A stretch of DNA of 21,103 nucleotides from a virus. Lineage: Duplodnaviria; Heunggongvirae; Uroviricota; Caudoviricetes. Below, one piece after another: positions 4,432 through 6,783 of the stretch (position 1 is the first letter of the stretch; every line of letters starts with the position of its first letter). The DNA lies in the IMG/VR virus record IMGVR_UViG_2547132281_000013, positions 1 through 21,103 of that record; one strand, 5' to 3'. The position numbers and the translations under genes were made by a program. The notes beneath the pieces are model-generated. The model was given only the letters and a program-made list of their open reading frames with translations. It had not been told where the DNA came from and ran no database searches.

Positions 4432-4794
4432 TTAACGACCTGCTGCGCGGAGTTTTCCGTCAGGTTCACCGGCAAGAGTCAGTAATTGTCCCTGGTCTTC
4501 CTGCAGAATAGTCAGGCGACCACCGCGATCGACATACATTGGCGTTTCGGTGGTGTCTTCTTCGGAAATTTTCCCGCGGTTAGTCGGGCGAACATATGAG
4601 AGTTTGTGTTTGATTTTCACACGGTTCTCATCAAACGGTTCGATTTCCAGATTGAGTGAGACCTTCCCTTTGGTTTTCGTGTTCATCACACCGGAAGCGA
4701 CTTCACTGAGAACTGCGCCGATTTTGGTTTCAAATACGCCGCCGTCCAGCTCCCCGATAAATGCCTGCACATCAGTACTGCGTTCGCTAGCCAT
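4432..4794 (-). CDS. yfdP: YfdP-like prophage protein
   Basis: Within ORF 4432-5112 the coding-like part begins at the internal ATG at 4794 (MASERSTDVQAFIGELDGG..., 120 aa), which has GAGGAG 9 nt upstream. The upstream extension is Arg/Cys-rich and not protein-like. Confidence 0.5.
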   Translation of the reverse strand: MASERSTDVQAFIGELDGGVFETKIGAVLSEVASGVMNTKTKGKVSLNLEIEPFDENRVKIKHKLSYVRPTNRGKISEEDTTETPMYVDRGGRLTILQEDQGQLLTLAGEPDGKLRAAGR

Positions 4795-4930
4795 TTTGCT
4801 GCTCCTCATCATATCGACCCTGCAAGGCCGATTAGTTTCTCCACAAAACAGAGAAGAACACCTGCGGTGGCAGCCGCCCGGATGGATTGGGTTATGAGCC
4901 CGTCGTCCGGTGATGCTCTTCTCTGTTTTG

Positions 4931-4977
4931 TAAAAAGAGCGGTACCAGCCGGAAGCAAGGGTACAAACTGGTACCGC
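4931..4977 (-). terminator. tL-like hairpin followed by a T-run on the minus strand
   Basis: 10-bp perfect inverted repeat GCGGTACCAG / CTGGTACCGC (4939-4948 and 4968-4977) with a 19-nt loop. On the minus transcript it is followed immediately by UCUUUUUA. Confidence 0.35.
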
Positions 4978-5194
4978 CAGGACTACACACAGCATAAAGT
5001 TGTGGTGCCGGGTGCCTCCCGGTGCCTGGCGAAGGTTGCACACCAGACGGGTGGGTATCCACAGAAGGTCGACTGTCAGCCTCAACCTTAACCCGCGTGC
5101 GCTGAGCCGCATTCACCACAACGCTAAGGATTCTCTCTGGTTGAAAATACTTAGCTGTTATGTGCCTGCTTTTAGCCACATCAGGCGAGGTGGA

Positions 5195-5248
5195 CCTGGT
5201 TATTCCCCAACAACAAGGATTCGGTTAATCTGGTTATCCCCAACAACG
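5195..5248 (+). repeat. imperfect direct repeat (CTGGTTAT[T]CCCCAACAAC, two copies) just upstream of ORF 5263
   Basis: Copies at about 5195-5215 and 5230-5248, ending 15 bp before the RBS (AAGGAAAAG) of the 144-aa ORF. Confidence 0.4.
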
Positions 5249-5262
5249 CAAAAGGAAAAGAA

Positions 5263-5697
5263 ATGTCCGGTAATATCTACACGCTGTACAAATCCCACTG
5301 TGAAAATGTTGGAAAGTATCGGGGCATTGAAATCAGTGGGGTAGTGTCATCAGTCGAAATAAGCAGAGTGGAATCAAGGGCAACATTACTTACTCTTCTG
5401 GACCTTGTCTTACATGAGCACCGGAAGAAATTCGGCACTCCCTATAATCAGTTGAATGGGAAAAAGGCTCTGGTTCACCTTATTCTGATGAAGCATCACT
5501 GGATGCCAAAACAGATTAATGAGATGAAATTCGATGAACTTCTTCTTTCAATTCAGGATGAACTCACACTTGATAAAATAAGCGTAACCGCCCAGAAATT
5601 TTTAGATTATCGAGACTGGAGATCACAAATTCATCACTTTGATGATTTTGACGAAAATGAATGGGAGCCTAATTTGTCTGCACAATATCTAAAGTAA
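5263..5697 (+). CDS. hypothetical protein, 144 aa; moron-like gene antisense to the leftward early operon
   Basis: ATG with AAGGAAAAG RBS. No transmembrane segment and no recognised domain. Its 3' end overlaps the convergent small ORF at 5669-5875 by 29 bp. Confidence 0.45.
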   Translation: MSGNIYTLYKSHCENVGKYRGIEISGVVSSVEISRVESRATLLTLLDLVLHEHRKKFGTPYNQLNGKKALVHLILMKHHWMPKQINEMKFDELLLSIQDELTLDKISVTAQKFLDYRDWRSQIHHFDDFDENEWEPNLSAQYLK

Positions 5698-5875
5698 CAT
5701 CCTGTGATAAAACCGTGATTTCCTGATCCAGTTTTTTTAAGGAGTCTATTGTTTCCTGTCGATAAGACAGCACTTCACGAAGCTGGTTTATAGCTGCCAG
5801 CTTCTTTGTCATCCACTCGTAAATTTCCTCATTTGTGTATCCGGGCGCGACGATTTTTGGTTCTTTTTTGTGCAT
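5669..5875 (-). CDS. small hypothetical protein, 68 aa; first gene of the leftward (PL-like) operon
   Basis: The ORF track begins at a TTG, but the likely start is the ATG at 5875 (MHKKEPKIV...), which has GAGGAGG 7 nt upstream. Not Arg-rich, so not an obvious N-type antiterminator. Confidence 0.4.
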   Translation of the reverse strand: MHKKEPKIVAPGYTNEEIYEWMTKKLAAINQLREVLSYRQETIDSLKKLDQEITVLSQDVTLDIVQTN

Positions 5876-5935
5876 TTCACACCTCCTCAAGTTATCAGTT
5901 ACTTGTTGATGGGGACCAGATTGTTAAAGAGCTAA

Positions 5936-5956
5936 GCGCCCGAAAGGGCGTTTTTT
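5936..5956 (+). terminator. putative rho-independent terminator on the plus strand
   Basis: GCGCCC-GAAA-GGGCG followed by TTTTTT. Confidence 0.4.
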
Positions 5957-6025: not shown

Positions 6026-6062
6026 TGTTTCGTTTGGGTACATTATGTATCTCAAGGGTACA
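6026..6062. promoter_or_regulatory. OL-like operator pair
   Basis: TGTTT-N7-GTACA (6026-6042) and TGTAT-N7-GTACA (6046-6062). The GGGTACATT motif occurs twice. Same half-site family as the cI/cro intergenic operators. Confidence 0.45.
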
Positions 6063-6073
6063 TTGTCAAGTAT

Positions 6074-6108: not shown

Positions 6109-6783
6109 TTAGGCTTTGATTTTGTATCTTCTTGGTTTTCCTGAGAAAATCACTGTACCAATTATAGAGCAATTACCGTTGATCTTAATGTAAGGCTCAG
6201 GCCAATTTGGGTTTAACGCTTTGAGATAACGCTGTGTCCCATCTTCTATCAACCTTTTGAAGGTGGTTTCACCTGTATCGTGCATCAATGCAATAACATC
6301 GTCACCGTGGCAGGCAGGTACTTCAGGATCGACAAAAATCATGTCTCCCGGGCGGTACTCATCAATCATTGAATCACCTATCACCCGCAAGATATAAGTC
6401 ATTTCCCCACAGGGTACAGGGCAGGGATACGTTTCTGCTGTGCTCAAATCAACCTCAGAATATCCAACTTCTTTCCATGCTCCGGCCTGTACCCATGATA
6501 TGACAGGGACTAATGTGATTTGTTTATTAGTGATTGAAACATCAGGTTTTTTTGTGATGTTCGTTGTCTGGTGTTCTTGATCGAGCCATCCGATAGGCAG
6601 GTCGAAACATTTTTCGATGTGTCGTGCCATGCTGTCACCGATATTTTTAGTAGCACCATCTCCCATAAACCTGCTGGTCTGGGTTGGCTCGCGATCAATC
6701 ATAGTGGCAAAGGAAGAATTCCCGCCAACACCATCTCTCAGTTTTCTGGCGTTAGACCGCCGGATGTCATGGATTGTTTTCAT
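6109..6783 (-). CDS. cI: CI-like prophage repressor (N-terminal HTH, C-terminal S24 LexA-type autopeptidase)
   Basis: 224 aa. The C-terminal domain carries the S24 catalytic Ser (RVIGDSM) and a downstream Lys (TTFKRL). Divergent from a Cro-like gene across an operator-bearing intergenic region. Confidence 0.85.
   Translation of the reverse strand: MKTIHDIRRSNARKLRDGVGGNSSFATMIDREPTQTSRFMGDGATKNIGDSMARHIEKCFDLPIGWLDQEHQTTNITKKPDVSITNKQITLVPVISWVQAGAWKEVGYSEVDLSTAETYPCPVPCGEMTYILRVIGDSMIDEYRPGDMIFVDPEVPACHGDDVIALMHDTGETTFKRLIEDGTQRYLKALNPNWPEPYIKINGNCSIIGTVIFSGKPRRYKIKA

Follow-up and report, generated by a model that had tools for sequence, protein, structure and literature searches.

The question raised by the 470 bases that separate yfdP from an ECs1072-family gene in an E. 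coli prophage is whether they encode a protein, an RNA, or only a terminator of the leftward early transcript. Sequence matching this gap is found in 3,095 of 5,426 complete E. coli genomes, with at least 80% of the gap matched in 1,843 of them; mosaic breakpoints bound the region, no annotation treats it as RNA, and RefSeq gives it a protein label both here and in K-12. The initial annotation of the locus had described a structured gap and suggested either an antitermination-controlled terminator or a prophage sRNA. Within the window (the whole stretch of 21,103 nucleotides analyzed), both answers appear to hold together. Judging from sequence comparison, the gap is a minus-strand RNA gene whose predicted product belongs, in diverged form, to the STnc100/PasD superfamily of small RNAs from lambdoid prophages, and the hairpin and U-run that had been noticed form the 3' terminator of this STnc100/PasD-homologous RNA.

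Table 1. Coordinates of the features discussed, in window positions.
Feature	Position	Strand	Remarks
Gap	4795-5262		470 bases; between yfdP start and ECs1072-family gene
yfdP start codon (ATG)	4794-4792	minus	left edge of gap
Y-shaped element	4838-4936	minus	helix of 25-30 bp with two small hairpins on top; yfdP leader
Predicted RNA, whole	4932-5161	minus	~230 nt; P0, P1-P5 junction, linker, terminator
Intrinsic terminator	4932-4977	minus	stem 4977-4968 with 4948-4939, then U-run 4938-4932
Linker UUUAUGCUGUGUGUAGUCCUG	4978-4998	minus	single-stranded; candidate seed for base pairing
Five-helix junction P1-P5	4999-5122	minus	
P1, closing helix	5122-5114 with 5007-4999	minus	
P5, CCGGG-AGGCA-CCCGG	5008-5022	minus	most conserved motif of the STnc100 superfamily
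P4	5048-5024	minus	
P3	5094-5049	minus	
P2	5110-5095	minus	
P0, 5' hairpin	5123-5155	minus	directly abuts P1; -11.8 kcal/mol, z = -5.0
tRNA-Thr-like fossil CCACC-N9-GUGG-CUAAAAG-CAGGCAC	5162-5193	minus	just upstream of the RNA
Hairpin CCUUGU-N12-ACCAGG	5195-5218		next to the fossil
ECs1072-family gene	5263-5697	plus	right edge of gap
First PL gene	5890-5669	minus	ORF of 68-73 aa
rrn-type boxA GCUCUUUAACAA	5932-5921		exact; in PL leader, just after a hairpin
PL-like promoter TTGACA-16-CATAAT	6042-6069	minus	11/12 consensus matches; just downstream of the cI terminator
cI terminator	6097-6078		

Fold and kinship of the RNA

The gap as a whole is indeed structured on the minus strand (z = -5.1, with 0 of 100 shuffles as good), the plus strand being weaker at z = -2.5. 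The structure is a five-helix junction closed by P1 and preceded by the hairpin P0, and covariation, which had been proposed as a check, bears it out. When the relatives were aligned with a covariance model, 98.4% of the cells in the junction were paired and 21 of the 27 pairs had changed on both sides, as against 2-8 pairs when the partners were slid, while none of 500 shuffles reached the real count. A plain MAFFT alignment gave 97.6% paired cells and 15 of 39 pairs changed on both sides, versus 2-5 when slid; for P0, also in a MAFFT alignment, 9 of 12 pairs were changed on both sides across 13 relatives. Helix P5 is the second GC hairpin of the initial annotation, CCGGG-TGCCT-CCCGG as written on the plus strand and lying 2 nt from the position first given, and it reproduces the Rfam consensus CACCGGGAGGCACCCGGCACCA letter for letter. 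Its stem is nearly invariant among the relatives and its loop varies (AGGCA, AGGAA, AAGCA, AAGCC); the e14 copy has lesions in P5.

The key match came from the Rfam/Infernal search that had also been suggested: STnc100 (RF02076) aligns to positions 4930-5152 of the minus strand over its full length (model positions 1-206 of 206) at 44.6 bits (E 5.5e-8), a score below the gathering cut-off of 47 bits, so that at the gathering threshold there is no match. The homologues in SfII, phiES15, sal3 and ST64B score 35-41 bits to the same model, on the same strand. The reciprocal test used R1, a covariance model built only from the subfamily of the window and confined to the core, with P0 left out. R1 matches the window at 4996-5124 with 116.8 bits, and it finds the canonical STnc100 of the Stx2 phage Stx2a_F403, 75-100 nt downstream of stx2B, with 53.9 bits (E 4.8e-13), as well as the copy of Klebsiella phage 1 LV-2017 with 47.1 bits. 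A scan of genome contigs with a 30-nt core pattern returned only 4 loci, all from Escherichia or Shigella; the diversity of the relatives was drawn from IMG/VR.

The RNA is thus homologous to STnc100/PasD, the match spanning the full length of the model and both occurring in lambdoid prophages. It shares with STnc100 the closing helix UGGUG/CACCA, the AAU junction, the CCGGG-AGGCA-CCCGG hairpin and a 3' intrinsic terminator with its U-run. PasD1 and PasD2, which are related to STnc100 and like it are encoded by prophages of Salmonella and pathogenic E. coli, are Hfq-stabilized sRNAs with RIL-seq targets, and in EPEC PasD is Hfq-dependent. The differences are nevertheless considerable. Canonical copies are late-region genes, located close to Q, stx and the lysis genes and apparently equipped with -35 and -10 boxes of their own, whereas the RNA described here sits in the early-left operon and has a tRNA-like fossil instead; moreover, it carries the extra hairpin P0, its P2-P4 and its linker (seed) are not the same, and a long Y-shaped helix follows it. 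With this assignment the STnc100/PasD superfamily also reaches into the early, repressor-controlled operon of phages like e14, SfV and ST64B.

The linker between P1 and the terminator is the candidate seed. Its sequence UGCUGUGUGUAGUC is kept in relatives from E. coli, Salmonella and Cronobacter despite completely different terminators, and the same scaffold carries at least two other linkers, one in mEp460 and the IMG/VR relative L063, the other in L064. Within the window, the sole match to a search for complementarity to the linker was the locus itself. The family is therefore modular, with a conserved five-helix scaffold to which linker, terminator and 5' context are fitted exchangeably, and this modularity eases testing of the function of these RNAs.

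Ends of the RNA and its transcription

The perfect 10-bp inverted repeat of the initial annotation (4939-4948 and 4968-4977, with 19 nt between the arms) is present, as is the minus-strand sequence UCUUUUUAC that follows it (4938-4930). The hairpin has a folding energy of -21.2 kcal/mol (z = -4.4; none of 200 shuffles matched it), and the stem can be extended to 11-13 bp, followed by C and then UUUUU. Termination may be weak, given an unusually large loop of 15-19 nt and no more than five U in the U-run; the loop also exceeds the limit of 8 in a simple terminator scan, which is why that scan lacked the hairpin. At the same position ST64B has the stem GUCGGCGUC/GACGCCGAC and phiES15 has GCCCGC/GCGGGC + U7. 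Three unrelated stem sequences are thus found at one place, each followed by a U-run and always at the same distance from the core. Terminators of representatives were folded, a strict scoring script having missed most variants on account of 1-3 unpaired bases between stem and U-run. A boxA at the terminator (CGCUCUUUUUA) was considered and rejected; most variants read GUCCUUUUUA, so it is not conserved.

Leftward transcription bound for yfdPQR, xis and int has to pass the hairpin. This transcription presumably starts at the PL-like promoter, which places the predicted RNA, lying between the cI/immunity region and yfdP/xis, about 900 nt from PL. Two other elements of the initial proposal fare less well. 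The right neighbor of the gap, taken for the first PL gene, is a plus-strand gene, that position belonging to the ORF 5890-5669; and antitermination control of the lambda-N type finds no support, no N-like protein having been recognized. The 73-aa product of the first PL ORF has no Pfam match, and comparisons with Pfam, NCBIfam and PHROG placed it in no N-like family. PADLOC assigned the neighboring proteins to no defense family.

Just upstream of the RNA lies a module that aligns, only loosely, to the T-arm and acceptor end of real tRNA-Thr genes. Its conservation is 84-97% in phages of E. coli, Salmonella, Klebsiella and Cronobacter, where the RNA bodies next to it differ, and in three IMG/VR relatives (L053, L093 and L022) real tRNA-Thr genes stand at its position; ARAGORN found no tRNA gene in the window. 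The fossil is probably a processing site that creates the 5' end of the RNA. The hairpin beside it is one of two copies of the repeat CTGGTTAT(T)CCCCAACAAC (5189-5207 and 5223-5241), and its stem varies in sequence among the relatives with the pairing kept. The hairpin more likely belongs to the 5' UTR of the rightward gene; in e14, SfII, phiES15 and sal3 its 3' arm, read on the plus strand, reaches up to or into the ribosome-binding site of that gene. No sigma-70-like promoter matching at least 9 of 12 positions was found upstream of the RNA on the minus strand. Hand-picked sigma-70 candidates upstream of P0 were discarded, as they do not have the final T of the -10 box, and so was an upstream sigma-54 candidate, TGGC-N8-GGCA, whose spacing is right for the Rfam 5' end; its GG-GC spacing shifts by 1 nt in e14, SfII and sal3.

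The ends given for the RNA derive from Term-seq 3' ends of the e14 homologue, 89.5% identical, mapped to the window, with ...CAGGCAC|AUAAC of e14 corresponding to window C5162 and ...CCCUUUUU|AC to window 4932. In MG1655, minus-strand 3' ends were reported at 1201195, 1201257 and 1201423 (Adams et al. 2021, PMC7815308). That at 1201195 is the last U of the U-run, window 4932, in agreement with the 3' end expected at about 4930; it was seen in one of three conditions, M63 medium, with 34,193 reads (PMC7815308). The end at 1201257 falls just after P1, in the linker (window 4995), and that at 1201423, the last base of the tRNA-like fossil, is the strongest, present in all three conditions with 1.1-2.9e5 reads (PMC7815308). 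Rho scores are given for the latter two only (LB 0.4), and both are marked as not Rho-dependent (PMC7815308). In uninduced K-12, then, the most prominent 3' end is located ahead of the RNA and not at its terminator. An RNA gene at this place would explain these orphan and "ORF-internal" 3' ends. [quoted passage not shown]

Beyond the terminator, in the yfdP leader, lies a long inverted repeat (4843-4867 and 4907-4931) that had been overlooked. Its Y-shaped helix pairs the terminator U-run with GGAGA and has 25 consecutive pairs, 30 when the U-run is counted; the minus strand folds at -51.2 kcal/mol (z = -8.0), and the plus strand has only 15 consecutive pairs. Across relatives 95% of the cells are paired, and 6 pairs are changed on both sides versus 0-2 when slid. 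Both e14 and SfII have the helix although they lack yfdP; phiES15 does not have it. On structural grounds it is a candidate RNase III site.

A proposed mode of action

As a whole, the locus is best explained, with a probability that we put at roughly three in four, by an STnc100-type RNA that is derived from the PL transcript, processed and terminated, and acts in trans, the terminator also serving as an attenuator. Such an RNA would have no promoter of its own and would be transcribed from the repressor-controlled leftward promoter (6069-6042), and for that reason it would be made chiefly once the prophage is induced. Cleavage just past the tRNA-Thr-like fossil, after C5162, would give the 5' end, and the 3' end would form where transcription terminates at the 4939-4977 hairpin and its U-run; where transcription reads through, RNase III cleavage of the helix 4838-4936 could supply the 3' end instead. 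Once freed, the RNA would act in trans through the linker, probably with Hfq, as PasD does, while the same terminator would attenuate transcription into yfdPQR, xis and int. The trans-acting function is our inference. The prediction that follows is a small, SOS-inducible RNA in many commensal and pathogenic strains.

Excision from the leftward early transcript probably releases the RNA, in a way similar to that of DicF from the dicB operon of the Qin prophage. DicF is reportedly embedded in the repressor-controlled early operon of a defective lambdoid prophage and has no promoter of its own, and it is said to be cut on its 5' side by RNase E and finished on its 3' side by termination or RNase III. 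There is, however, no real sequence kinship, the Rfam DicF model scoring 15.7 bits (E = 3), at the terminator, and DicF is a 53-nt RNA of simple fold as opposed to ~230 nt with a five-helix junction. The terminator and long helix in a leftward transcript with a boxA in its PL leader also recall lambda tL1, the RNase III site of the N leader and nut, but no N-like protein is recognized here, the boxA-like stretch at the terminator is not kept among variants, and the hairpin, unlike tL1, closes off a conserved RNA gene at its 3' end. The put sites of HK022 are cis-acting antiterminator RNAs of an N-less lambdoid phage, two stem-loops of ~70 nt placed just after the promoters. They resemble the present case as structured RNA in the early transcripts of a phage with no recognized N homologue; the RNA in the window differs in lying far from PL and in its fold, and we found no evidence of antitermination.

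Coding potential and competing explanations

The statement that no protein-like frame fills the gap was correct as to conservation and incorrect as to the letters, since an ORF at 4432-5112 on the minus strand spans the gap in frame with yfdP. Its equivalent in phage SfIV is annotated as a 226-aa protein, while RefSeq/PGAP places a pseudogene here at 4809-5119 ("hypothetical protein, frameshifted") and a 103-aa YmfH in K-12 e14. A coding gap, in the form of YmfH or of an N-terminal extension giving a 226-aa YfdP, could further appeal to the match of YmfH to phrog_33599 over 37 residues and to the overexpressed ymfH clone that triggers the retron-Sen2 toxin, an effect that could, however, stem from the RNA and not the protein. 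We regard this reading as barely credible. Comparison of 89 variants revealed no conserved coding frame, the YmfH frame staying open for 12-120 codons and the ATG frame for 7 to >138, and 1-nt indels separate the window from ST64B inside the core. The start codons lie inside helix P1 with no ribosome-binding site, no frame of the gap matches a Pfam or NCBIfam family, and the substitutions preserve base pairs, not codons; in our own reading of the three minus-strand frames, e14-specific indels appear to have stitched the e14 ORF together from three frames of the window. Given that no reading frame is conserved, the K-12 YmfH ORF and the PGAP "frameshifted" call are probably artefacts, and an RNA gene in their place takes one phantom protein family out of the E. 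coli y-ome. At the other extreme, the gap might hold nothing but a tL terminator beside what is left of a decaying tRNA and sRNA, brought in by recombination and without present function. The resemblance of the upstream module to a degraded tRNA-Thr, the damaged P5 of e14 and the breakpoints at the borders of the region would all suit such decay, which is still very improbable in the face of compensatory changes in all helices across phages of Escherichia, Salmonella, Klebsiella and Cronobacter, of the large number of E. coli genomes that carry the gap, and of a terminator that is replaced by unrelated sequences and yet always rebuilt at the same distance from the core.

A more serious competitor, though in our estimation a rather unlikely one, is a cis-acting module of the early-left transcript, be it a 5' stabilizer, an insulator, a cassette for processing or a leader that binds a protein or a ligand, in place of a trans-acting sRNA; the module, the leaky terminator and the long helix may then set how much transcription and translation reach yfdP and beyond. 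Some IMG/VR relatives have the core (130-145 bits with R1) directly after a tRNA-Thr and without any terminator, and such cores lie 29 nt before the start codon of a gene for a TerB-like or small membrane protein; with these terminator-less leaders upstream of ORFs, a cis role fits at least as well as a trans role. The junction and the P5 stem are, besides, conserved far beyond the needs of a scaffold, the RNA has no promoter of its own, and the Y helix in the yfdP leader sequesters the U-run. A trans-acting RNA, on the other hand, better accounts for the terminator-bearing versions, which have the classic 3' end of an sRNA (single-stranded stretch, hairpin and U-run), for a linker exchanged as a unit between variants in the manner of a seed, and for the canonical PasD and STnc100, which are stand-alone Hfq-associated RNAs; nor was any riboswitch-like alternative pairing between P1 and the terminator seen on inspection by eye. 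We offer as a tentative and, on balance, unlikely proposal that P0-P5 is more than one further Hfq sRNA scaffold, namely a mobile autonomous RNA domain of enterobacterial lambdoid phages, descended from an RNA located behind tRNA-Thr in phage tRNA arrays and acting to bind a specific factor or direct processing. It may have been put to use in three settings: on its own as an sRNA close to stx and the lysis genes, 29 nt ahead of moron-like accessory genes (for a TerB-like protein and small membrane proteins) as their leader, and as an excised cassette of the early-left transcript, where the fossil tRNA may still serve as the cleavage signal that frees the RNA. If that proposal were true, the phenotype of K-12 ymfH, the triggering of the retron toxin included, would be the phenotype of an RNA.

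An STnc100/PasD homologue in the early-left region

The prophage in the window is lambdoid and belongs to the SfIV/SfV/e14 type; the region of the yfdP-proximal gap (4795-5262) is identical to E. coli CH4790 and shares 99% identity with Shigella phage SfIV. It follows from the layout of the flanking genes and of the leftward promoter that leftward early transcription crosses the gap, yet the flanking genes are divergently oriented. The ECs1072-family gene and the first leftward ORF also overlap convergently by 29 bp (5669-5697), and two plus-strand terminator-like hairpins lie within or beyond that ORF (5779-5804 and 5934-5953), so rightward and leftward transcription must collide there.

Features around the gap and of the RNA (window positions)
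Feature	Position	Strand	Remark
cI repressor, LexA-like	6109-6783	minus	right of gap
cI terminator	6097-6078	minus	right of gap
Strong leftward promoter TTGACA-16-CATAAT	6069-6042	minus	right of gap
First leftward ORF, 68-73 aa	5890-5669	minus	right of gap
ECs1072-family gene	5263-5697	plus	convergent with the 68-73-aa ORF
Linker, 21 nt, single-stranded	4998-4978	minus	directly after closing helix P1
Y-shaped element	4936-4838	minus	25 consecutive pairs, two hairpins on top
yfdP	4432-4794	minus	left of gap
yfdQ, yfdR, then xis and int		minus	left of gap, beyond yfdP

The initial annotation had taken the gap to be structured and possibly to hold a terminator or a prophage sRNA, and the minus-strand RNA of the whole gap indeed folds 5.1 SD better than dinucleotide shuffles (2.5 for the plus strand). 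Both of the hairpins it described are present, the perfect 10-bp inverted repeat at 4939-4948 / 4968-4977, followed on the minus strand by UCUUUUUAC, and CCGGG-N5-CCCGG at 5008-5022; a longer inverted repeat, 4843-4867 / 4907-4931, had been overlooked. The Rfam search that it suggested gave no match in the window at curated thresholds, but under permissive settings STnc100 (RF02076) matched over its full length, on the minus strand at 4930-5152, scoring 44.6 bits (E 5.5e-8), 2.4 bits short of the 47-bit cut-off. In this alignment, the hairpin 4939-4977 with its U-run is the family terminator, and the best-conserved motif of the family is CCGGG-AGGCA-CCCGG. Homologues in SfII, phiES15, sal3 and ST64B score 35-41 bits against STnc100, on the same strand as in the window. 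Conversely, R1, a covariance model of the RNA core that scores the window at 116.8 bits, recognises a Klebsiella phage copy (47.1 bits) and, with 53.9 bits (E 5e-13), the canonical STnc100 that an Stx2 phage carries downstream of stx2B. The gap RNA is thus homologous to STnc100 and to the related prophage sRNA PasD. However, the canonical copies lie in the late region, and they show promoter-like boxes where the gap RNA has a 5' hairpin (P0) and a tRNA fossil; the linker also differs, and the Y helix is a feature of the gap RNA. In ST64B, an isrK Hfq-binding RNA match (64.3 bits, gathering score 50) was found on the plus strand at 5231-5307 of its locus, right of the immunity region.

A conserved fold and unconserved reading frames

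Relatives were drawn from E. coli genomes, GenBank phages and IMG/VR, and 12 divergent representatives were kept and aligned. RNAalifold places P0 (5155-5123) next to a closing helix, P1 (5122-5114 with 5007-4999), which encloses four hairpins, P2-P5. In a MAFFT alignment, 97.6% of the cells are paired and 15 of 39 pairs show double-sided changes (9 of 12 in P0 alone), as compared to 2-5 double-changed pairs with slid partners, and none of 500 shuffles reached this level. The alignment fitted to R1 gave 98.4% and 21 of 27 pairs, against 2-8 slid, but is biased towards structure by its construction, a bias of which the MAFFT alignment is free.

Among the phages, P0 tolerates inserts of widely differing length, from 21 to ~130 nt; in Salmonella phage 118970_sal3, an insertion of ~90 nt in apical P0 contains the tRNA T-arm-like CTGGTTCGATTCCAG. 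In the e14 core, the P5 hairpin, invariant elsewhere, has lost one nucleotide and has a G-to-A substitution (CCGGG-GGCACCCGA); with 107.7 bits, this K-12 copy scores lowest of its group against R1 and so may be partly decayed. Four other loci (L036, L069, L047 and L124) have, 300-700 nt upstream of the first R1 match and on the same strand, a second, weaker one (22-27 bits), an indication that some phages carry the RNA as tandem paralogues.

The claim that no protein-like frame fills the gap does not hold literally, but no frame is conserved; ORFs have been annotated across the gap. PGAP labels 4809-5119 a 'frameshifted hypothetical protein', the K-12 e14 homologue (89.5% identity) is annotated as 'YmfH' (103 aa), and SfIV has an annotated YfdP fusion of 226 aa. 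Across 89 sequence variants, the YmfH frame is open for 12 to 120 codons and the frame from the ATG within GGUGAAUG for 7 to >138 codons, and the cores of the window and ST64B differ by one-base indels. By our reading of the sequences, the e14 ORF would owe its existence only to e14-specific indels joining three window frames. The unconserved frames, the core indels, the lack of any Pfam or NCBIfam match and the position of the ORF start codons within helix P1 argue strongly against the gap being a protein gene. Overexpression of a ymfH clone has been reported to trigger the retron-Sen2 RcaT toxin (bioRxiv 10.1101/2020.06.22.160242); the RNA, and not a protein, could be what triggers it should ymfH prove to be an RNA gene. 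A non-exhaustive literature search found no paper describing this copy or doubting ymfH as a protein. The practical value lies in annotation, as 3,095 of 5,426 complete E. coli genomes have a match to the gap.

The 3' and 5' ends of the RNA

The terminator hairpin (-21.2 kcal/mol, z = -4.4) is followed by a run of five U. At the same place, ST64B and sal3 have an unrelated hairpin, GUCGGCGUC/GACGCCGAC, and phiES15 and the related locus L064 another, GCCCGC/GCGGGC with U7, which argues for selection on terminator function and not on sequence. The linker motif UGCUGUGUGUAGUC is kept across those swaps, and mEp460/L063 and L064 have different linkers on an unchanged scaffold; such behaviour would be expected of exchangeable seeds. 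The 3' end had been predicted at about 4930, and Term-seq of MG1655 places a minus-strand end at 1201195, the last U of the e14 U-run, in M63 medium (Adams et al. 2021, PMC7815308, Supplementary file 1), equivalent to window 4932. A further minus-strand end, at 1201257 (window 4995), lies just past P1 in LB at OD 0.4 (Adams et al. 2021, PMC7815308). That the 3' end is letter 51 in the printed strings was confirmed on the sgrS row. The stretch shared by mEp460 (2693-2832 of its locus), many Stx2c phages and others is limited to window 4796-4979, which holds the Y helix and terminator. Upstream of it, these phages keep the P0/P1 frame but have another body on it (28 bits with R1), which puts the mosaic breakpoint at the linker-terminator junction.

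Upstream of the RNA, no sigma-70-like promoter matching at least 9/12 was found, and a sigma-54-like match was rejected since its spacing fails in relatives. What is found there is a 32-nt module (5193-5162), 84-97% conserved beside differing RNA bodies in Escherichia, Salmonella, Klebsiella and Cronobacter phages. ARAGORN detects no tRNA in the window, and the module aligns loosely with the anticodon arm, T-arm and acceptor end of tRNA-Thr. Distant IMG/VR relatives have a real tRNA-Thr at this position, ending an Asn/Arg-Tyr-Thr array; there, ...CGGCACCA of the tRNA runs into the same ACAYAAC, with P0 next. In the e14 region, the Term-seq 3' end with the most reads, 1201423, falls on the last base of the fossil module (between ...CAGGCAC and AUAAC) and was seen in all three growth conditions with 1.1-2.9e5 reads (PMC7815308). 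Cleavage there would release a downstream RNA that starts at window 5161. Transcription would then come from the repressor-controlled leftward promoter, in agreement with the LexA-cleavage-dependent induction of ymfH, xisE and intE of e14 and their membership of one transcriptional module.

The leader of the leftward promoter (5921-5953, minus) has a hairpin AACGCCC-UUUC-GGGCGCUU followed immediately by GCUCUUUAACAA, an exact rrn-type boxA, of which ~0.05 matches are expected per window; this boxA, which 44 of 115 related loci have ~815 nt upstream from the core of the RNA, may signal NusB/NusE antitermination of the early-left operon. In the IMG/VR contigs L053, L093 and L022, phage tRNA arrays include a relative of the RNA, in the order Asn or Arg, Tyr, Thr, RNA, with a tRNA-Ser after the RNA in L093. 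Upstream of the ECs1072-family gene, window 5189-5241 has two copies of CTGGTTAT(T)CCCCAACAAC, 34 nt apart, and Salmonella phage F1055 and Klebsiella phage Kp4866-6 keep the pair. The loop and arm of a hairpin (5195-5218) come from one of the copies; the hairpin stem covaries from phage to phage, and on the plus strand the hairpin abuts the ribosome-binding site of the rightward gene. The stretch may also hold a weak plus-strand promoter, TTCCCC-17-TAATCT. In e14 (2843-2925 of its locus), SfII, phiES15 and sal3, the conserved module reads as a promoter on the plus strand (TTCACC-16-TATGCT in e14, TATACT in phiES15), with the -10 box precisely on the mosaic boundary, so that these 38 bp may act on one strand as a rightward accessory-gene promoter and on the other as an RNA processing site.

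Possible trans and cis roles and the Y-shaped element

The proposed scheme is that of a promoterless RNA embedded in the repressor-controlled early operon of a lambdoid prophage; an endonuclease would free it on the 5' side, and its 3' side would result from termination or RNase III. DicF is made by this same route, and the proposed arrangement is DicF-like in both embedding and release. The most likely function, by analogy, is trans-acting base pairing through the linker, because the canonical relatives PasD1/2 are Hfq-stabilised and have RIL-seq partners. The main rival is that the fold acts in cis: some relatives have the same core (130-145 bits) without the terminator, 29 nt upstream of start codons, as in L053 and L022, the genes that follow encoding a TerB-like or a small membrane protein, and the junction and P5 stem are conserved beyond the needs of a passive scaffold. 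The two roles are not mutually exclusive.

Downstream of the terminator, the Y element (-51.2 kcal/mol, z = -8.0, minus strand) reaches 30 consecutive pairs if the U-run pairs with GGAGA; the plus strand has only 15 since several pairs are G-U. Pairing is kept at 95%, with six double-changed pairs against 0-2 slid, a moderate support because divergence is low there. In e14 the element precedes xisE and in SfII a yfdR-like gene, and phiES15 lacks it; it travels with the RNA, not with yfdP. Its length makes it a plausible RNase III substrate, and such candidate cutting would trim read-through transcripts and remodel the yfdP leader.
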